Shown: positions 37,061-55,890 of the stretch, in pieces
How the letters are laid out: every line of letters begins with the position of its first letter
How positions within the stretch are numbered: the first letter of the stretch is position 1
From: an uncultured Anaeroplasmataceae bacterium
Lineage (GTDB): Bacteria; Bacillota_I; Bacilli_A; Acholeplasmatales; Anaeroplasmataceae
Length of the DNA stretch: 55,890 bases
NCBI GenBank assembly: GCA_948701955.1
Contig: CAPSSR010000002.1
Location: 1 to 55,890, forward strand
Direction: 5' to 3'
The notes under the pieces: generated by a model
Seen by the model: only the letters and a program-made list of their open reading frames with translations
Told to the model about the DNA's origin: nothing
Databases searched by the model: none
Made by a program: the position numbers and the translations under genes

Positions 37061-38109
37061 GAAAGTTATCTCCTTTGCATCTTTGGATATATTATTGCTC
37101 TGATTATTGTATCTGTGTTCAGCTATACGAAATCAATCTATTCTTTCTCTATCTAGCAGAAGAGCAGATAAGAAAAAACGAAACATAAATGATAGGCTTC
37201 TCTGCAGTATTTTTTCTTATAGATGTATATGGTATGCCAAATCATAAGACTACGTAATGATTTTTTGCCCAAATTCGCTTATAGAAGAAGCATAGGTATA
37301 TTTTATAAGATATGATACTATTTTACGAAAATGGGCCTCAAATCATTTGTGTACGTTATAATGCCAGCAAATTGCTTTCTGCTTTATGTTCAATCTGTAT
37401 TTGGTACTTATTCATTAAAAAAATCTCCGTATTATTTTTTGCATTAGAGCCATAAAATATTATTCTCTTTTTTGTCAGGATATTTAATGAGTTCGGTGAT
37501 GGATGGTATTTGTCCTATTTTTGGATTACGAAAGATATTGATTCTACTGGATGAACTGCATTTTTGCATATATGATTCGTTAGCTTCTTCTAATGAATAT
37601 ACTTAGCAAATATGAAATTCTGAGAAGGGTTCGAGAATATGCTGATTTTATAAGGGATTTTAATATTTTTAGAGGTAATTTTTTCGATTTTGAATGCTGG
37701 AATAATTGTCTGAAAATTTATTTGTGGTTGATTTCGATGGATTTTAGAGGATTGGCTTCGAAGTGCTAACCGAACTGTTTTTTGAATTGTGTAGAAGTTT
37801 GATGCAATTTGGGGATGATAGGTGGAGTCAAAATTTTAAGCTGATGTGAGAATGGAACTGATAAGCGCTTTTGAGGCTTTGACAATCCATTTTAAAATGT
37901 AAATATACCCCCCATATGTCAATATTTTGAGGTATGAGCACCCATAAACAAAACCGCATATTTACTTGTTTTCAAGTTACAAAAATGTTGTATTCATAAC
38001 TTTATATATAGGTCTGATATGTCAACAAATAATCAATTTTGTAATCAGCTATAAGTGGTCATCTATCCATCGCACTTGATTAAAATATATCAATAAAAAA
38101 TTTAAATAT

Positions 38110-38176
38110 ATAAACCTATCGTGCTGGTATGTTAATGAATATAAACTTATTAACATACTAACATAGTAGGTTTATA
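38110..38176. repeat. nested inverted repeats (cruciform-capable palindrome)
   Basis: Outer ATAAACCTAT / TAGGTTTAT (38110-38119 / 38167-38175); inner GTATGTTAAT / ATTAACATAC (38127-38136 / 38149-38158). Confidence 0.6.
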
Positions 38177-38711
38177 GGTGGTTCGGCAACTGTATTAGTC
38201 GGCTAATACGGTTTTGATAAAACAACAAATATACTATTTCCAAAACAACATATCTACTAAAAACCTATTAAAATCTATTGATAATCATCTTAAAAAACAG
38301 GCCTACATTAAACTATGCAACAAATATACAAAATAGTAACATGATAAACACTCTAATAAACACAATAGCACATCAACCATCGCTCCATCATATCATACCC
38401 TACATGTCATCTTTACATCAATAGCACATGCACACAATAACCATGCGCACATGTGCTATACCAGTGCTATATCATTTATTTGCCCTATATACCGCATTTA
38501 TCCCCTAAACCCAACAACTATACCGTCACTACATTTCAGCCCCTATTTGCCCTAAATAGGCCTATACAGTGCCATAATAATCGCTGACTCTAATCAGTCA
38601 CTACTCCATCATATGAACCAATTTCCATCAACCTTCCATCATGAATCCCTTACTATCCAGATTATCCAGATCTGCTTCAATCAGTCCCTTGATATAAGCA
38701 GCGGCGTTATA

Positions 38712-40198: not shown

Positions 40199-40423
40199 AT
40201 GGCGATACATACAAATAAAGAATTGTCCCAGGCTGTACAGGACGCAATAAAAGAATCTGGTATCAAGAAAGTATTTATTGCTGAAAAGTTAGGAATTAAG
40301 CGTGAAGTATTTGCAAGAATGCTAAACAAAAAGCAATTTTCACTTGACGATGCTAATAAAATATTAGATATTATTGGATTCCAGACCGAAACAAAGGTGA
40401 TAAAAAAAGACACGAAAACGTGA
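40199..40423 (+). CDS. small HTH DNA-binding protein (paralog 1)
   Basis: 74 aa; MAIHTNKELSQAVQDAIKESGIKKVFIAEKLGIKREVFARMLNKKQFSLDDANKIL. Confidence 0.55.
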   Translation: MAIHTNKELSQAVQDAIKESGIKKVFIAEKLGIKREVFARMLNKKQFSLDDANKILDIIGFQTETKVIKKDTKT

Positions 40424-40551: not shown

Positions 40552-40744
40552 TCCAGGAGCAAAAAGAAAAATCCCCATTCCTTGACAGAAACAGGGAAAT
40601 TTCAAGAAAAGTGCATAAACACTTTTCCCCAAGCAAGGAAAGTATAACACAATTCTTGATGATCTGTCAATCGGCAGAATTTCCCTAAAGTTTTTGGCAC
40701 CTTGAAAAGTGAATAGTGAAGTGCTAGAAAAAATCCTCAATGCA

Positions 40745-40753
40745 TGGTATAAT
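40745..40753 (+). promoter_or_regulatory. extended -10 promoter (TGgTATAAT), copy 2
   Basis: tggtataat 30 bp upstream of the 40784 ATG. Confidence 0.45.
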
Positions 40754-40783
40754 TTCCTTATCTTATATTGGGAAGGTGAGAAT

Positions 40784-41050
40784 ATGGCGATAAAAACAAA
40801 TCAGGAGCTGGCGGATTTTGTCAAAAAAGCTATAAAAGCATCTGGAATTAAAAAAAATAGTATTGCGGAAAATATAGGATTGTCAAGACAAGGATTGGAT
40901 AACTTATTAAATAAAAAATCATTCTCACTTGACGATGCAAACAAAATATTAAATGAAATTTCATTATCTGCTAGTGTGGAAATACAAAGCGAAATTTTAA
41001 AAATTTTCCAAACAGACAAGCTAAATAAATTGCTGGAAGAAAAGCAATAA
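40784..41050 (+). CDS. small HTH DNA-binding protein (paralog 2)
   Basis: 88 aa from ATG at 40784; MAIKTNQELADFVKKAIKASGIKKNSIAENIGLSRQGLDNLLNKKSFSLDDANKIL, clear paralog of the 40199 product. Confidence 0.55.
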   Translation: MAIKTNQELADFVKKAIKASGIKKNSIAENIGLSRQGLDNLLNKKSFSLDDANKILNEISLSASVEIQSEILKIFQTDKLNKLLEEKQ

Positions 41051-41078
41051 AATATATTGCAAAAAAGCAATAAAATAG

Positions 41079-41107
41079 TTGACATTGATTCTAAAGTGTG
41101 GTAATAT
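41079..41107 (+). promoter_or_regulatory. sigma-70-like promoter facing the GC-rich ORF-free region
   Basis: TTGACA - 17 bp - TAATAT. Confidence 0.4.
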
Positions 41108-41119
41108 AAATACAGTTAA

Positions 41120-42790
41120 GGAAATAGAAAAGCCGCTCCTCAGCTACCAACTAACGAAGCGACTTTTCCCGAAACCACTTAAAAGTGATTGCTCTTATTC
41201 TAACATTTCATTATTCACTTTTCAAGTGTTTTCGCACAAGTTTCCAAAACAAAAATCATAAAGCTGTAAAAATGTTCAGATTCCATGGCAAGCCGAAAAT
41301 CAATTTTTACAGTCCAGACCGTCCAAGAAGTAGGCAGTCAGGGAGTAGCCCCTTTTGAGTACTGACACTGGAGGGTATCTGAAAGTGTAGACCTCAATTG
41401 CATGAAAAGGCTACATGCCGTATCCTTACAAGATTGTATAAGGTAGGATGCACAGGCGGGGAAGGCGTTATACGGCGTAACAGTCACTAATAATAAACCG
41501 TTTAGCGTGATACCACAAAACTTGATTAGTGTCATAGTGTGGGAAATATCCACATACTAAACAGTAATAAAATAAGGATATGTCGAAACTGTCAAAAGCA
41601 GATGGAGAAAATTGTCAGAAACGGCTATAGGCAAGATACCTTGTTTGTAGATACAAAGTAAGATGATTATTATCTGGTGGGAACCGTTAAAACGGCATAG
41701 GGGCAACGGCTATTAAAGCGTTGATGAATGCAAAGAATAAAATAAAAACTGTTTAGGATTTTAAATAGGGTAGCGATTGAAATTTGTATGTTAATAGGCC
41801 CATGTGGGGCGGCATATGAAAAGTAGTCGTTGTGTGGGCTGCCCAAGACAAAAGCCCATTGGAGCCTATACCAGACGCTGAGAAGCTTGAGAGAGATGGA
41901 GCGCAAAAGGCAGGTGAGAATACACCTGAAGGCTGAGATTGCCTTATTCCACCGCTAATTTTACAGACTGACAGACTGTGATTGAGAAAAAGCGGTATAC
42001 AAGCACATATAGGGAAAGAACCATCAAGGGCTTGTCAAGTGGCAAGCCCATTTTACATATAAAACGGACAAACAGAAAGAGAAATATCAATCATAAAGCG
42101 GTCAACTGCTTTTCAAAAAGGAACGTGATGTAAGCGCGGATTCCCCTCCGGTCATGTGGGGAATTCAAAACCATAGCAACGACAATAAGCCTATGGCATA
42201 GAATACAGATCGGGGACTACTACCTGACAGTAAATGGCTTTCCTGGTTTCAGATAGAAATAGCAAATCGGGGAATCGCTCAAGACTGGCAATGCGATTAA
42301 CAAGTTGTGCCGGCATTCCGGGAGCCTGTATATCTCCCGCAAGAAAACAGATTATACACGCATGGGAAGAGCGTTAGACTTAAATGCTGGAATAGTCAGA
42401 CGGTGCGGAAATCTAAGGAAAGTACGGTAAAAACTATCAGGATAAAAATAAATACCGTGAGCGTGTCCGTATAGCGCATTTGCATAAAAGGGTTGATGGC
42501 AAATAGAAACGGCGTCACAGGTTAGGGCGAAAGCTACTATGGCGGAGATAATAAGTTTTATTATTTACCATGCTTACAAAAACAGAATCAAACGTGCGGC
42601 GATGTAGAAAGCCGGTGAACCACCGTTACCAACGGGACATAGCCATATAGGCCGGAAGCATTTAGCCTTTATCCCTTGAAAAGTCTCTTTTGTGGGCATG
42701 GATAAGTAATAAAAGCCTTGAAAAAGTTTTGCGGTTTGACATGAAAAAAGAAGTAGTAAAGTAGTAACTAATAATATAGCTTAGGAGGTG
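41120..42790 (+). ncRNA. candidate large structured non-coding RNA (class unknown)
   Basis: About 1.5 kb with no credible ORF (stops in all frames); GC clearly above the roughly 30 percent background; purine-rich on plus strand; many GC-rich hairpins (GGGCTTG/CAAGCCC, CGGGAG/CTCCCG, CCGTT/AACGG, ATTCCCC/GGGGAAT). Confidence 0.3.
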
Positions 42791-42795
42791 TCTAA

Positions 42796-43971
42796 ATGCA
42801 ATTTAAAATTTATGAGGAAAATATGGAACGGTTAGAGAAAAAGATTGCCAGGATTAGCAAGAAGTGTGAAAAGTATGGCAATTATTTTCGCTATGAAGTA
42901 GTTGGCGAGGAATTTGTAGAGAAATATGATGAAGAATTGAGAAAAGATGTAGTTTTAAGGTATGTTATTGTAGAAGCAGAGGGTACAGCCATAATTAATA
43001 ACTGGCGTTTCATCGCATTGGTAGAGCATACAGGCACGACATATGGAAATGTAATCAAAAGTTGCTGTGACATAGAAGTTCCTGAAAGATATTATACAAG
43101 TCGGCCGATTTGTGAACATTGCAAAAGCAATCGGCCTAGGAAAGATACGTATATTGTACAAAATATTATAACTGGTGAATTTAAGCAAGTCGGCAAATCA
43201 TGTCTGATGGATTTTACTTATGGAATGAGTGCGGAAGGCGTGGCAAGATATATCAGTTTATTTGATGAATTGATTCAAGGAGAGGCGATAGAGCCAGGAT
43301 GCCATAAAATCCATTATATTGATACCAAAACAGCATTATGTTATATAGCGGAAACCATTCGACATTTTGGATATGTCAAGGCTGATGGAGTCAGATCGAC
43401 AAAACATAGAGCTATGGATTATTATAGTGTAAGAAATGGATTTTCTACATTTGTGCCAAAATGTGATTTGAAAGAAGAGATGGAAAGTGTAGAATTTGAT
43501 CCTTTTTCTGATTACGCTAATGAAATGGTTTCCAAAGTTCTTGAATGGATTCCCAAACAAGAAGAGTCAAGCAATTACTATCACAATTTGAAAACTGTAT
43601 GTACAATGAGGTATATAGGTTTTGACAAGTTTGGAATCCTTGCAAGCTTGTTCCCAGCATACGATAAAGCGATGGAAAGGGAGAGGCAGATTATAAGCGA
43701 AAAAGAAAATGAAAAAAATTCTGAATATGTAGGCAATGTCGGAGATAGAGTGACCATTGAAATTGCAGACCATAAAGTCATAACAAGCTGGGAAACGGAA
43801 TGGGGCATGACAATGATCCATAAAATAACCGATACAAATGGGAATATCTATACCTGGAAGACGAGTAAAGGAATTGATGATAAGATTAAAAAGATTGTTG
43901 GAACGATTAAAGACCATATCGAATATTATGGAGCCAAACAGACAGTAATTACAAGATGCAGAACATCATAA
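42796..43971 (+). CDS. hypothetical protein
   Basis: 391 aa; RBS aggaggtg; Cys cluster CEHCKSN...GKSC; no family recognised. Confidence 0.5.
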   Translation: MQFKIYEENMERLEKKIARISKKCEKYGNYFRYEVVGEEFVEKYDEELRKDVVLRYVIVEAEGTAIINNWRFIALVEHTGTTYGNVIKSCCDIEVPERYYTSRPICEHCKSNRPRKDTYIVQNIITGEFKQVGKSCLMDFTYGMSAEGVARYISLFDELIQGEAIEPGCHKIHYIDTKTALCYIAETIRHFGYVKADGVRSTKHRAMDYYSVRNGFSTFVPKCDLKEEMESVEFDPFSDYANEMVSKVLEWIPKQEESSNYYHNLKTVCTMRYIGFDKFGILASLFPAYDKAMERERQIISEKENEKNSEYVGNVGDRVTIEIADHKVITSWETEWGMTMIHKITDTNGNIYTWKTSKGIDDKIKKIVGTIKDHIEYYGAKQTVITRCRTS

Positions 43972-48821: not shown

Positions 48822-48923
48822 AATTGGACTGTATTAATAATATAAGGCATTGTATAGAAATATACAGTGTCCTTTCTATTTTAAGTAGATATTTAAAAAG
48901 TATTAAAAATATAAAAATAATAC

Positions 48924-50197: not shown

Positions 50198-50230
50198 TTT
50201 ATGCCCTCTTTACACATATAAGGAGAAGAT

Positions 50231-50419
50231 ATGACAGTAAAAAAGATTTTTGAATTGGGGTTGATTAATGACAGTACAAAAATATATATCCGTAATCCGG
50301 ATATGTATACTCTTGCATATGGGAATTGGTTTCATGATAATGTGTTGAAATATTTGGATTCTGTAGCAGAATGTTTCACTTGGCAGGATGACAATAAATT
50401 TTATATTGATCTGAAATAA
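50231..50419 (+). CDS. hypothetical protein
   Basis: 62-aa ORF, RBS aaggaga. Confidence 0.4.
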   Translation: MTVKKIFELGLINDSTKIYIRNPDMYTLAYGNWFHDNVLKYLDSVAECFTWQDDNKFYIDLK

Positions 50420-50437
50420 CCAGAGGAGAATAGAACA

Positions 50438-50653
50438 ATGAAAAACAATGAAGCTTTAACCTATGAAGAATTTATTGCTTTAGGGAAAGCGAACTACACA
50501 AATGGCGGCGATGTTGTGTATGAATGCTGGGAACGCTATGAATTTGAAGATTATGTGAAAATGTTTGGGGCGATGACAGAAGAAAAAGCAATGAGACTTT
50601 TTCGGTTGTATAAGTCTCAGGAAGATGAAGCGGAAGCCATGTCAGAGTGGTAA
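50438..50653 (+). CDS. hypothetical protein
   Basis: 71-aa ORF, RBS ggagaa. Confidence 0.4.
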   Translation: MKNNEALTYEEFIALGKANYTNGGDVVYECWERYEFEDYVKMFGAMTEEKAMRLFRLYKSQEDEAEAMSEW

Positions 50654-50681
50654 ATTGAACAATTACCTGATGGAGGCAATT

Positions 50682-50828
50682 ATGGATAAAAGAGAGATGA
50701 TTAAAGAGATATTAAGAAACCAAAACAGGACAAACGACCATATTTTTACCGAAAAGAAACTTGAAGGTATGAATTGTGGAATGTTGGTTATCATTTGCGA
50801 AGCTAGTAAGCACATGATTACAAAATAA
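50682..50828 (+). CDS. hypothetical protein
   Basis: Internal ATG of ORF 50625-50828, preceded by RBS ggagg. Confidence 0.35.
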   Translation: MDKREMIKEILRNQNRTNDHIFTEKKLEGMNCGMLVIICEASKHMITK

Positions 50829-50905
50829 GCCAATGAAAGGATAGTTTATCCATAGTAAAAGGGTATCATCAAAGTGTGGTATCATTTATAGTTTGGATAA
50901 ATGGC

Positions 50906-50933
50906 TTGAAAAAGTTATGGAATCTGATATAAT
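50906..50933 (+). promoter_or_regulatory. promoter TTGAAA-16-TATAAT inside repeated element (copy B)
   Basis: ataaatGGCTTGAAAAagttatGGAATCTGATATAAT upstream of hicA. Confidence 0.5.
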
Positions 50934-50960
50934 GAATATATACAAAGGAAGTGAATCAGA

Positions 50961-51200
50961 ATGAACCAAAAAACATATAATGATGTAATAAGCGGAAAAT
51001 CTGACAACAACATAAATTTTGGCGATTTCTGCAATCTTATTGTTGATTTGGGTTTTTCTTTCAAGGGGGAAAAAGGTTCCCATAAGTCATATTATCATAA
51101 TGGAATAAATGAACGTATGACAATACAGAATGCCAATTCAAAGGCTAAAGGCTATCAGGTTAGACAATTAAGGGATATTATTATTAAGCATGGTTTATAA
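50961..51200 (+). CDS. hicA: HicA-family toxin (mRNA interferase)
   Basis: 79 aa; DLGFSFKGEKGSHKSYYHNGINERMTIQNANSKAKGYQVRQLRDIIIKHGL fits HicA/YcfA consensus. Confidence 0.8.
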   Translation: MNQKTYNDVISGKSDNNINFGDFCNLIVDLGFSFKGEKGSHKSYYHNGINERMTIQNANSKAKGYQVRQLRDIIIKHGL

Positions 51201-51212
51201 GGAGGTATTATA

Positions 51213-51425
51213 ATGGCAGAATATTCTATTTTCATGCAATATGATCCACAAGATAATATATTTGTTGCGAGCATCCCTGAATTGCCTGGATGTATGGCGC
51301 ATGGGGAGACAAAGGAAGACGCATTAAAAGAAATTGAAATAGCTAAAGAATTATGGATTGAAACCGCTTTAGAAGATGATTTACCAATCCCAGAACCGGC
51401 ATTGTTTACCGATGTAGCGGTTTAG
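51213..51425 (+). CDS. hicB: HicB-family antitoxin
   Basis: 70 aa; YDPQDNIFVASIPELPGCMAHGETKEDALKEIEIAKELWIE fits HicB consensus; directly downstream of hicA. Confidence 0.75.
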   Translation: MAEYSIFMQYDPQDNIFVASIPELPGCMAHGETKEDALKEIEIAKELWIETALEDDLPIPEPALFTDVAV

Positions 51426-51465
51426 ATAGGGGGCGATAAAGATTACTATACAACAGAAAATTGAT

Positions 51466-51654
51466 ATGGCTTGTGCCCATGCTGGAATCAGCAAAGCGGA
51501 ATTGTCACGGCGATTAGGATATAAAAAACCGCAATCATTCCAAACTAGATATGACACGGGAAAATTTACACAAGAAGAATTGCAAGATATCGCACAAGCA
51601 ACTGGGGGAAAATACATTTCAGTATTTCAATATCCAGACGGTACAGAGATTTAA
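51466..51654 (+). CDS. small HTH domain protein (possibly detached HicB C-terminal HTH)
   Basis: 62 aa; ISKAELSRRLGYKKPQSFQTRYDTGKFTQEELQDIAQATG. Confidence 0.45.
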   Translation: MACAHAGISKAELSRRLGYKKPQSFQTRYDTGKFTQEELQDIAQATGGKYISVFQYPDGTEI

Positions 51655-52061
51655 AGCATTTACTATTAAAAGTAAGTGCTTTTTTATTGTCTATGATATA
51701 AGTAAAATAATTTATAAAAGCAGTAAAAATACTGTTGACAATATAAGCAAAATCACTTATAATAGAGATAGTTAAAGGAAAGCAACACAAAATCCAATAA
51801 CAAGAGATGGCCACTCACCAACACGGAGCGGAGACGGAACCGCTAACAAATACCGTGCTCTATGGTTGAAGGGGTAGTCAAGTCCCCAAAGTGCAGTATT
51901 GCGAAAAAGGGCATAGGGCAAAACCAAGGCAGATTTGTTATAATGCAGCCTGAAAGCCTGATCAACTTTCAGTCAGTCCACAGCCTGTAAAATGCAGATG
52001 GTAACAGGAAAGCAATGAAGAAGTAGTTACTGTACATAGACAGGCCAAAAAGAAAGGTTAA

Positions 52062-53743: not shown

Positions 53744-53759
53744 AGAGAGGGGATAAATT

Positions 53760-53996
53760 ATGCCAGCATATAGTTATACCGAATATATAAGCCCATCAGG
53801 GAACACGCAGATATATATTGTAAGACGTAAGAAGAATATCATAAAAATATCTGCTAAAGAGAAAGAGGTAGCTAATCAGAAACGTCTGGGCGCTGGAATG
53901 ATTATTGTGGGCCTGATGGGATGCGTGATTTTCCCAGAGGACTGCGGAGGCGCATTATTGGCCTGTGCCATGGGAATTTTAAGGATGATTTTTTGA
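53760..53996 (+). CDS. small hypothetical membrane protein
   Basis: 78 aa; hydrophobic C-terminus GAGMIIVGLMGCVIF...ALLACAMGIL. Confidence 0.4.
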   Translation: MPAYSYTEYISPSGNTQIYIVRRKKNIIKISAKEKEVANQKRLGAGMIIVGLMGCVIFPEDCGGALLACAMGILRMIF

Positions 53997-54009
53997 GGAG
54001 GCTCTGTAC

Positions 54010-54141
54010 ATGCAGAATTTTACAGAATTTTTGAAAGAAAATTATGAAATATCAGAAGAGGAATTTGAAGAATTAAGTATCTATGAGAAGAAGATTATAG
54101 ATAGTGAATATGATTGTTATATTGATTCTATCATAAAGTGA
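54010..54141 (+). CDS. possible 43-aa acidic small protein
   Basis: RBS gaggagg; MQNFTEFLKENYEISEEEFEELS... Confidence 0.3.
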   Translation: MQNFTEFLKENYEISEEEFEELSIYEKKIIDSEYDCYIDSIIK

Positions 54142-54153
54142 CAGAGGTGGAAA

Positions 54154-54288
54154 ATGAAGAAGTATAAAATGTATGATGCAAATTGGGTTTTTATACGTAA
54201 TGTGGAAGCGTTTAGCGAATTTGCTGCAATTGATATCGCCGAATCAGAGGATATTGGCCATTACTATTTAGTGCCAGTGATGGAATGA
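54154..54288 (+). CDS. possible 44-aa small protein
   Basis: RBS agaggtgg; MKKYKMYDANWVFIRNVEAF... Confidence 0.3.
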   Translation: MKKYKMYDANWVFIRNVEAFSEFAAIDIAESEDIGHYYLVPVME

Positions 54289-54325
54289 TGGATATTAATG
54301 AATAGTTTTATAGGGAGGGTGAAAG

Positions 54326-54550
54326 ATGTCGGAAATATTGGATGCTGTAAAATATGTTACAGATAATAAACTTGAAAAGGAAGCGAATATTTTAGCTTGT
54401 AAAGTTGGAAATATTTATGTTGCATGTTATATGATTTGCAAAAATATTCCCCTTACACAAGAAAATATTGATATATGCAGAAAAGTTGTCGAAAAGGGAA
54501 AAGAAGAAGAGAGGAAGAGTGGCATAACCGTGTTTTTAATACATAAGTAG
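54326..54550 (+). CDS. hypothetical protein
   Basis: 74-aa ORF, RBS agggagggtg. Confidence 0.45.
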   Translation: MSEILDAVKYVTDNKLEKEANILACKVGNIYVACYMICKNIPLTQENIDICRKVVEKGKEEERKSGITVFLIHK

Positions 54551-54592
54551 AATATTTATAAACCGTGTATTTTATGGATGGAGGATAAACAT

Positions 54593-54832
54593 ATGATTTT
54601 AGATAATAACTATGAAATGAAGGTTGTTATTGTTGAAGATAGAAACGGAGTTTCTGGAGATGTGTATGATGATTTTAGAAAATTTAAAAGTGAACATCCG
54701 TATAGTGGTTATAAGTTTGGATTTTGTGTTGTTTCAAAAGTAGGGAATTATGTTCCAGAGGGGTGCAACAATTGGAACGATAGTCCAGAGGAAGCGTTGC
54801 ATGATTATTTTGACAACGCATGGAGGCAATGA
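54593..54832 (+). CDS. hypothetical protein
   Basis: ATG after RBS ggagga (internal to ORF 54578-54832). Confidence 0.45.
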   Translation: MILDNNYEMKVVIVEDRNGVSGDVYDDFRKFKSEHPYSGYKFGFCVVSKVGNYVPEGCNNWNDSPEEALHDYFDNAWRQ

Positions 54833-55062
54833 AACTACTGTTTTGTGGTGCTGTGCAATAACAAGAATATAATAATGGCTCCTGATTGGTGGATGGTTAG
54901 CCAGTTATAGGAAGGAAGATGGAAAGGTTACAGTAAACGGAGTTTGACGAACGGCCACAAACCTTATTTAAAGCCTTAAATCAGCGCATATGCAAATATG
55001 TATGTGCGTTGCATTAAGTCCTTAAATAAGGTAAAATAAAAGCGTCAGGAGGGTATGTAGCC

Positions 55063-55311
55063 ATGAAAAGAATATCGTTTATAATGAGTATAGACGCAGA
55101 AGGGAAGATTACAGTAAAGGAAATTTTAAATTATATTATTCAGAATTTGCCAGAAGTAAAAGTTCCTGATACTGATATAATGCAGATACCACTTGCGTCA
55201 TTGGCATTATCAGATGATAGTACAAAACATTGTATAGACGGTGAAATGTGTGGTAAAAAGTGGCAAGATGGAAAATACATGGAGTATGAAATAACTTTAA
55301 CTTTTGGATAA
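55063..55311 (+). CDS. hypothetical protein
   Basis: 82-aa ORF, RBS aggagggt. Confidence 0.45.
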   Translation: MKRISFIMSIDAEGKITVKEILNYIIQNLPEVKVPDTDIMQIPLASLALSDDSTKHCIDGEMCGKKWQDGKYMEYEITLTFG

Positions 55312-55398
55312 ATAAGCGGCATAGAAATAGAAGTAATAAGCAAGTGACAAATAGAAAATGTTACTTGCTTTTATTATTGAAAAACGGAGGAAAATGAG

Positions 55399-55890
55399 AT
55401 GCAGAATACAAAAATATTAGAGATGCTCAATAATGGGCAGATTGAAGAGCTGAAGGCGTTGATTCAAGAGGAGATATTTACAAATGAACTGAAAAGTAAA
55501 CCAGGAGCAAAGCAGCGCTACTTAGCTATGAAGAAATACTTTTCATATATAAAGAATTCAAATCCAGTTCTTGCAAAGCCTTGTATGATTGAGTTTGAAG
55601 GGGAAAAGTATACTTCTTTTGTTAACGGATATTCGATAGCCCTAACAAAAGAGTCAAGTGGAGAAATGCAACTTTTTGAAGAACCAGAAAAGTATTTGAA
55701 TGTAGGGAAAATGATAAGATATGATGGAAATGTAAAGAAAATCGATTTTAACTTAATATTGGCTGAGGCAAAAAGTAAGGGGTATAAATTGAAAAGTTCA
55801 GAAGTGGATCTGAATGGAGATTTTAGATATGTGATTCATTATAATGATGCATATTTTAAAATTGGTTTGCTAGATTCTACATATAGTATC
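55399..55890 (+). CDS. hypothetical protein, 5' part (runs off right edge)
   Basis: ATG after RBS ggagg; open for 164 codons to end of window. Confidence 0.45.
   Translation, partial: MQNTKILEMLNNGQIEELKALIQEEIFTNELKSKPGAKQRYLAMKKYFSYIKNSNPVLAKPCMIEFEGEKYTSFVNGYSIALTKESSGEMQLFEEPEKYLNVGKMIRYDGNVKKIDFNLILAEAKSKGYKLKSSEVDLNGDFRYVIHYNDAYFKIGLLDSTYSI

Follow-up and report, generated by a model that had tools for sequence, protein, structure and literature searches.

The present work describes a structured RNA at the entry to the early genes of a phage, carried on the stretch of DNA presented above, which is 55,890 nucleotides (nt) long and is called the window here; all positions refer to the window, and L-numbers denote related loci. 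The RNA, a rod-like domain of 166 nt at positions 42553-42718 on the + strand, is the constant and defining element of a unit that starts with a sigma-70-type promoter at 41079-41107 and occupies a gene-free region of about 1.7 kb. We conclude that this rod is a conserved and covarying RNA secondary structure which is specific to the + strand and fixed in position and orientation. The interpretation that we favour, with a probability of roughly 55%, is that the region serves as a structured RNA leader to the rightward (early) operon of a tailed phage infecting Lachnospiraceae of the mouse gut and that the rod probably acts in cis; that it does so on the transcript that carries it or on the polymerase is inferred from its position.

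The same phage is present in many mouse-gut assemblies, in which the region is 100% identical except for one contig (L005, a short fragment of 92.6% identity); comparisons among these contigs are thus uninformative. Searches for exact copies of the two flanking proteins likewise led back to the same phage only. The locus L021 encodes a 390-amino-acid (aa) protein 74% identical to its counterpart in the window, and has a collinear upstream gap with islands of 86-91% identity. Exact words from these islands, and then degenerate patterns, were run on IMG/VR, the JGI/ENA metagenomes and the GTDB genomes; the large scans required TTGAAAAG and GGATAAGNAATAAA. With nhmmer and a covariance model, about 45 loci were confirmed; the rod is full-length in 41 of these, and its distinct sequences number 35. 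Of the 46 metagenome pattern matches, about 9 found no support from either method and were discarded. The genome scan covered 185,579 species genomes and gave 14 pattern matches, of which 8 were confirmed as rod (two partial) and 6 were dropped. L033, one of six matches to a three-block rod pattern, turned out to be a chance match inside a coding sequence. The relatives are phages and prophages of mouse-gut Lachnospiraceae, and the confirmed genome records are Lachnospiraceae bacterium COE1, MD308, 1XD21-87, Acetatifactor muris, Roseburia sp. 1XD42-69, 'Bacterium 1xD42-87' and two Lachnospiraceae metagenome-assembled genomes. An IMG/VR locus with a relative (52% identity) of the 391-aa gene that follows the rod in the window, L001, has no homologous upstream region; therefore, the RNA is not tied to that gene.

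Every member of the rod family folds as a single long irregular hairpin of about 160 nt, comprising a basal stem, short helices and small internal loops. In the window, the basal stem P1 pairs 42556-42581 with 42688-42714 (UUUUAUUAUUUACCAUGC.../...GUGGGCAUGG-A-UAAGUAAUAAAA), forming a conserved duplex of about 26 bp with one bulge. The inner loops, AUCAAAC opposite UUGAAAAG (42676-42683) and GAACCA opposite GACAUAGCC, are conserved in sequence, and the apical stem (42623-42635) is variable and covaries strongly (UA:22/CG:13 and CG:18/GC:15). As UUGAAAAG and the P1 3' strand were prescribed by the search patterns, their invariance is in part an effect of ascertainment. The covariance model of the rod, R1, scored 173 bits at 42553-42718, where the + strand rod, P1 and the inner motifs are found as a single copy ahead of the early open reading frames (ORFs). 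The window sequence belongs to the R1 seed alignment, so that its own match is given by construction and the independent support comes from the other loci.

To count paired positions we used the model-based alignment of the 35 distinct sequences, with 44 pairs, and as controls 500 shuffles and alignments in which the 3' partner was slid by 1-3 columns. The results showed that 97.6% of the cells were paired, compared with 92.3% after shuffling and 35-51% after sliding, and that 22 pairs were changed on both sides, compared with 8.1 and 3-8, respectively; none of the 500 shuffles attained any of these measures. An earlier reading made from the window sequence alone (hereafter the sequence-only reading), which took the region for a large structured non-coding RNA, had proposed a search for covarying pairs among relatives. 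Such pairs are strongly supported for the rod, but the 166-nt 3' rod is the only part that reaches strong statistics. About 124 of the 1532 paired rod cells (about 8%) are G-U, which become A-C mismatches on the opposite strand, and R1 gave 170-200 bits for the + strand but about 30 bits for the - strand. Therefore, the structure belongs to the + strand, on which the flanking genes also lie.

These features bear on two explanations that do not invoke an RNA function. The rod might be a DNA-level element, namely a single-stranded DNA hairpin (origin or priming), a cruciform or operator pair, or a recombination linker. This would fit the abrupt end of conservation at the 3' end of P1, after which different gene modules follow, the conservation of P1 in sequence beyond pairing alone, and the location of the A/T-rich P1 3' strand at the UP-element place for the promoters that follow in many loci. 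We regard it as improbable, because the nested helices covary over all 160 nt including the apical stem, unlike paired operators, the G-U pairs rule out a symmetric cruciform and favour a transcribed strand, and there are no iterons or direct repeats in or around the rod; moreover, we know of no obligatory single-stranded stage of tailed double-stranded DNA phages at the rod position. A miniature inverted-repeat mobile element of the Correia, RUP or ERIC type would likewise fold as a hairpin, and the rod resembles one in having about 160 bp with 26-bp terminal inverted repeats that give a long hairpin when transcribed, as Correia elements do. However, R1 found one copy in the window, each of the 14 genomes matched in the scan had one pattern match, orientation and syntenic position are constant, the internal helices covary, and the flanks bear no sign of a target-site duplication; we therefore rejected this explanation as very improbable.

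Independent assemblies (L005 1-217, L006, L010 and L022-L024) break at or near 42685, inside the rod, where their contigs start. An assembly-graph branch at an element common to co-occurring phages would produce such breaks.

To place the element among known RNAs, the whole window was searched with Rfam 15, and at the gathering score only 4 tRNAs were found. At E<=10, the interval 40900-43000 gave only three chance-level matches to eukaryotic families (E=6.3-9.9), and at E<=0.5 nothing was found on the element in eight related loci. There was no model match to GOLLD, ROOL, OLE, HEARO, raiA, 6S or other families of Rfam 15, which agrees with the sequence-only reading, where no known RNA class could be assigned. 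A group I or II intron was also rejected, as there is no Rfam intron match and the flanks are complete, separate genes. BLASTN of 41100-42800 against 50,697 INPHARED phage records gave no match. Measured against Rfam 15, the rod plus its optional upstream modules is thus a previously uncatalogued RNA family, which we rate as a new family within a known general kind, the structured RNAs of phage early regions. A published catalogue of viral RNAs contains more than 10,000 unnamed candidates, with motifs of 29-151 nt, one of which could correspond to the rod (PMC10690425).

The rod lies in the 3' part of a region (41051-42795, 1745 nt) between a small helix-turn-helix (HTH) gene and the 391-aa gene, both on the + strand, and this region is non-coding. 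No frame contains an ORF: stop-free frames reach 94 aa at most, where windows of 1745 nt have a median of 266 aa, and the largest listed ORF is 78 aa. Reassignment of a stop codon gave at most 118 (TGA), 124 (TAG) or 192 (TAA) codons and opened no gene, and no suppressor tRNA is among the four tRNAs of the window. Public gene callers left the gap empty in at least 10 identical contigs of the same phage, and six-frame translations of the region had no match to Pfam or PHROGs. Among relatives, the substitutions lack three-base periodicity (0.110/0.120/0.114 in the rod) and the indels are not multiples of three; in a variable arm upstream of the rod (42340-42552) the mismatches per codon phase are 8/12/7, with 20 gap columns, which is no coding pattern. 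The sequence-only reading had likewise described the region as ORF-free and had noted that the + frames at 41281 stop within 30 codons (they do so after 25, 27 and 16 codons). It had also named, as what would overturn it, a protein gene in a variant genetic code or a decayed pseudogene. With stop-free frames, tRNAs, protein similarity and substitution pattern all negative and no point found in support, we rejected both as scarcely credible.

The GC content of the region is raised, as had been remarked before: it is 41.8%, compared with 33.1% for the window, and exceeds that of all 544 sliding windows of the same size. The purine richness of the + strand noted at the same time is real (59.5%) but not distinctive, for the flanking + strand genes have 59.5-60.2%, and it therefore reflects sense-strand bias alone. 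All four hairpins that had been named (42028-42049, near 42325, near 42622 and near 42140) are present, and the one near 42622 is the apical stem of the rod. The minimum free energy (MFE) z-score was -4.18 for 41110-42055, +0.19 for 42056-42720 and -0.45 for a coding control.

A pattern scan recovered the promoter TTGACA-17-TAATAT with TG at 41079-41107 on the + strand, which the sequence-only reading had already seen pointing into the region; its hexamers and spacing are conserved in L078, L075 and L049. It is followed by a conserved leader (41112-41240, + strand) with a hairpin at 41127-41168, a long stem at about 41170-41234 and CUUUUCAAG at 41218-41226. Promoter and leader together (41051-41239) are 79-85% identical in the same three loci, the leader stem CGCU/AGCG is replaced by CGGU/ACCG in L049, and the MFE z-score of the leader is -3.55. 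In L078, L075 and L049 the promoter, the leader, about 1.2 kb without substantial ORFs and the rod recur together, in a unit of about 1.35 kb from promoter to rod that has no + strand terminator.

On the - strand, a candidate antisense small RNA of about 70 nt with two hairpins (41118-41225) is complementary to the 5' end of the + leader. Its putative promoter, TTGAAA-17-TAGAAT (TG) at 41225->41197, was found by pattern scans in the window and in L078, and a terminator-like stem (41145->41131) is followed by a U-rich tail. The MFE z-score is -4.95 for 41118-41192 on the - strand, and the sliding-window minimum of that strand, -5.3, falls there. A 32-nt inverted repeat (40701-40732 and 41195-41226, 88% complementary) flanks an 88-aa HTH gene and the 41079 promoter, and each of its arms reads as a promoter-like TTGAAA-17-TAGAA(T/A); the two may represent operators acting as a pair, or a promoter that has been duplicated.

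Between leader and rod the region is a mosaic of + strand modules, of which the relatives share separate blocks in differing combinations. A lineage-specific stretch of about 410 nt (41241-41650) has a BLAST coverage of 0 in all fetched loci and no similarity to Pfam or PHROGs. It is followed by a conserved block (41742-41870), 87-89% identical in L040/L050, whose hairpin GGGCU..AGCCC at 41836-41857 is replaced at the same position by GUGAUCU..AGAUCAC in L084. The module M0 (41952-41995, four distinct sequences) has an outer stem CCGCU/AGCGG around an inner hairpin ACAG-ACUGACAGA-CUGU; in L071 the inner stem is GUGA..UCAC, with all four pairs changed on both sides. The hairpin at 42028-42049, found by pattern scan, reads GGGCUUGUC-AAGU-GGCAAGCCC followed by AUUUUA, and with nine pairs (6 G-C), a 4-nt loop and this tract it has the form of a putative intrinsic terminator. 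At the same place in L025-L030 there is a covarying counterpart, AGAGAGUGUCAAG..GGCACUCUCU plus a U-rich tract, which in L025 comes after a protein-coding gene. Patterns from the 42028 hairpin, run on IMG/VR, and from M0 returned nothing.

The next shared part, termed the 5' block (42095-42136), contains a small hairpin, AAAGC-GGUCAACU-GCUUU, and then CAAAAAGGAACGUGAUG. It occurs in about 25 loci with 88-100% identity and lies about 72, about 235 or 457-521 nt 5' of the rod, and this variable spacing implies an optional mosaic middle domain between the two. The block ends (42118-42133) in AAGGAA-N-GUGAUG in about 25 loci, which resembles a Shine-Dalgarno (SD) sequence plus start codon and may be read as the beginning of a mini-ORF. 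Such a mini-ORF would have 1 to 26 codons; the window reads AUG UAA at 42128-42133, in several compact forms the product would be MFKREIKSNKSNT or a close variant of it, and the stop codon directly adjoins the rod at its base, and in L044 and L080 indels alter or extend the frame. A - strand promoter in the 5' block was considered and rejected, its spacing not being conserved in the window.

The 135 nt at 42137-42271 are unique to the window's phage and include a hairpin, GGAUUCCCC..GGGGAAUUC (42138-42167), that appears in both the MFE and the centroid fold and has no relatives. The core module (42273-42313) consists of a hairpin AAUCGC/GCGAUU whose loop CUGGCA can pair with a downstream UGCCGG, as a candidate H-type pseudoknot. 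Across 15 distinct core sequences 98.3% of the cells are paired, against 16-42% in slid controls; one pair is changed on both sides (G-C to A-U) in 3 sequences, several further changes are wobble-compatible, and 10 of 500 shuffles attain the observed pairing and 6 of 500 the covariation score. These figures are suggestive of the pseudoknot but do not prove it. The core was seen in three IMG/VR loci, each of which has the rod as well. The adjoining hairpin CCGGGAG-CCUGUAUAU-CUCCCG (42318-42339) reads UGGGAG..CUCCCA in L070 and L040, a change of C-G to U-A, and its position is taken in other loci by another hairpin, GUGUGA..UCACAC. Last before the rod is the variable arm (42340-42552), which is shared essentially with L028 only (about 83-84% identity), except that 42340-42387 is also found in L040, L070, L068 and L073.

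The sequence-only reading of one RNA of about 1.5 kb of the GOLLD/ROOL/OLE type is not borne out by this organization, since only about 35-40% of the region has relatives and these share modules in differing combinations. What remains of the large structured RNA proposed there is a non-coding region on the + strand behind a conserved promoter with covarying structure, but not one uniform RNA.

The unit might nevertheless be a stand-alone large RNA acting in trans as a scaffold, decoy or anti-defence factor, GOLLD/ROOL-like, with the rod as its conserved 3' domain. Several phages have promoter-leader-rod units of 1.3-1.65 kb that lack substantial ORFs, a separate promoter right after the rod in many loci would set the unit apart as an independent transcription unit, folding of the first half is much stronger than that of shuffled sequence, and a dedicated antisense candidate lies at the 5' end. 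In addition, GCUUUUCAA, which occurs both in the leader (41218-41226) and in the 5' block (42108-42116), is complementary to UUGAAAAG of the rod, with a background on the same strand of 0.058 per kb. GCUUUUCAA and UUGAAAAG might pair over a long range or in an alternative fold; UUGAAAAG was kept constant by the scan pattern, and the one variant of it that was found, UUAAAAAG in L029, is uncompensated. On the other hand, most of the 5' kilobase is unconserved, the family includes compact forms of about 240 nt and, in L082, a rod by itself immediately 3' of a 279-aa ORF, the terminator-like hairpin at 42028-42049 divides the unit of the window, the rod end lacks a canonical terminator, and no known large-RNA model matches. 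We consider a stand-alone RNA less likely than a leader, but a serious alternative. The fuller version, in which everything from the promoter (41079) to the end of the rod (42718) is one modular trans-acting RNA of 1.3-1.65 kb, with its ends tied by GCUUUUCAA:UUGAAAAG, under antisense control and confined to Lachnospiraceae phages, seems to us doubtful.

A leader of the early operon, which we prefer, is suggested by the genomic context. The phage is tailed, with portal, terminase and tail genes on the - strand, and its + strand early region begins at a divergent switch beside a CI-like HTH gene. This early region contains two paralogous small Cro/CI-type HTH genes, at 40199-40423 (74 aa) and 40784-41050 (88 aa), and homologues of the 74-aa protein lie 0.6-2.3 kb 5' of the rod in at least 11 diverse loci. 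For the second gene, a GTG start giving 113 aa (40709-41050) is probably wrong; the ATG at 40784, which gives the 88-aa Cro/CI-type protein as in some public contigs, is preceded by a promoter (40725-40753, TG-extended TATAAT) and the SD sequence GGGAAGGTGAG. Downstream, the rod is separated by 77 nt from the first early ORF, which has an SD sequence AGGAGG at 42783-42788 (SD and ORF 42783-43971, + strand; 391 aa, phrog_2319, function unknown) and lies outside the RNA family. The rod is co-oriented with the downstream ORFs, and in 31 of the 41 loci the first detected ORF begins 5-141 nt 3' of it; the larger gaps in the remaining loci are partly an artefact of the start-finding rule.

What follows the rod differs among loci. 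About half of the loci, like the window, have an SD sequence and start codon within about 100 nt of the rod (5-77 nt in most), and the gene varies by locus. In the other half or so, a good promoter begins 2-12 nt 3' of the rod and drives an autonomous module; it reads TTGACA-17-TATAAT in L084, and promoters are also present in L042, L021, L027 and L025. Among these modules are an AbiQ/ToxN type III toxin (L021, 4597-5318) and a Gp49/HigB-like toxin (PF05973) in eight or more loci, including L027 (894-1302), L037, L085, L055, L075, L046, L062 and L084, whose autonomy fits later insertion. As differing genes and modules stand directly 3' of the rod, its 3' edge is a module boundary and an insertion hotspot.

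Several observations weigh against a cis-acting leader. The promoters behind the rod in about half of the loci weaken a purely cis model, because the rod and the genes 3' of it could there be on separate transcripts. In the compact forms a terminator-like hairpin lies 5' of the element, and a promoter between hairpin and rod was sought and not found. The second half of the region (42056-42720) is without excess folding energy, the evidence for the core pseudoknot, based on one compensatory pair, is weak, and the real diversity of the family may in part exceed a set collected with fixed patterns.

If the leader interpretation is correct, the promoter at 41079-41107 would fire into a 1.6-kb unit built of exchangeable RNA modules, in the order leader with antisense candidate, lineage-specific stretch, small hairpins, terminator-like hairpin, 5' block, core and rod. 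Directly 3' of the two small Cro/CI-type HTH genes, this unit would be a control point for entry into the early genes, in which the antisense RNA and the internal terminator may tune the flux. The rod itself might serve for RNase III-type processing or stabilisation at the 26-bp basal stem, or alternatively for a put-like modification of RNA polymerase.

The phage has four ORF-poor regions in all. The three further ones, at about 37061-38711, 50200-52060 and 53750-55890, contain no stop-free frame above about 80-120 aa and are not GC-enriched. The first has several inverted repeats, e.g. 38109-38136 with 38149-38176. The second has a terminator-like hairpin (51653-51682), a perfect TTGACA-17-TATAAT (51735-51763) and a twister-P1-like match at 51937-52005 on the + strand (47.9 bits, below the gathering score of 67.2; E=1.3e-7). 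Relatives also have twister-P1 matches of 56-63 bits (L028 2305-2373, L070 2005-2073, L042 6630-6698 and 7481-7559), and in one relative the same early operon also includes a clear skipping-rope RNA (79.6 bits).

Little is understood of the temperate phages that infect Lachnospiraceae, a dominant family in the gut, and to our knowledge no control elements of their early regions are known. The present analysis gives for these phages a structured, strongly covarying RNA at the start of the early operon, adjoining an insertion site of AbiQ/ToxN and HigB-like modules, together with the covariance model R1 and cultured lysogens that carry it (Lachnospiraceae bacterium COE1, Acetatifactor muris DSM 23669 and Roseburia sp. 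1XD42-69).

Among known systems, GOLLD and ROOL, which are frequent in prophages, resemble the present unit in being phage- or prophage-borne, GC-enriched and ORF-free in an AT-rich genome, and the unit is large when taken from promoter to rod; GOLLD also has a conserved 3' part and a variable 5' part. The differences are that there is no covariance match at E<=10, that the conserved element is a simple 166-nt rod rather than a multi-junction fold, and that the unit has exchangeable upstream modules, compact forms of 240 nt and a site that is fixed within the early operon, not near tRNAs. Should the whole 1.6 kb prove to be one RNA, it would be an addition to the very few large RNAs of bacteria and phages whose function is unknown. 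The 6S RNA and other rod-like RNAs of 160-190 nt are similar in length and in the rod shape with internal loops, but there is no Rfam 6S match and the present rod has small internal loops only, without a large central bubble. The P4 CI RNA (seqA/seqC), P1/P7 c4, P22 sar and lambda oop share with it a long untranslated early leader with an overlapping antisense candidate, and the short complementarity between distant conserved blocks is a further parallel; there is no similarity in sequence or structure to any of them, and the likeness is a lead only.

The RNase III hairpins of phage early transcripts (T7 R0.3-type sites, the lambda N leader and the SP82 early-RNA 5' stabiliser) are comparable in that a near-perfect stem of about 26 bp stands just 5' of the first early ORF. 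RNase III cuts such duplexes in phage early transcripts, a duplex of about 20 bp or more being required, and about 26 bp would be long enough for a substrate. The known sites, however, are about 60 nt, and the conserved internal loops of the rod (GAACCA/GACAUAGCC and AUCAAAC/UUGAAAAG) and its covarying distal helices imply more than a cleavage site. In position the element is comparable with the leaders of processive antitermination, HK022 putL/putR, lambda nutR-tR1 and the Bacillus eps EAR, since it follows a Cro-type gene and early promoter, lies beside a terminator-like hairpin and precedes the delayed-early genes, and since it is a structured RNA on the transcribed strand that is independent of the following gene. 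In the window it precedes terminator-like sites at 48846 and 51653, but the terminator-like hairpin nearest to it is on its 5' side. The put and EAR elements are about 70 and 120 nt in size, respectively. The present element, in contrast, extends over 160 to more than 600 nt and has another shape, and in its compact forms the terminator-like hairpin is upstream and not downstream. If the RNA does control the transition to early-gene expression, it would be a Gram-positive counterpart of nut and put with a very different architecture.

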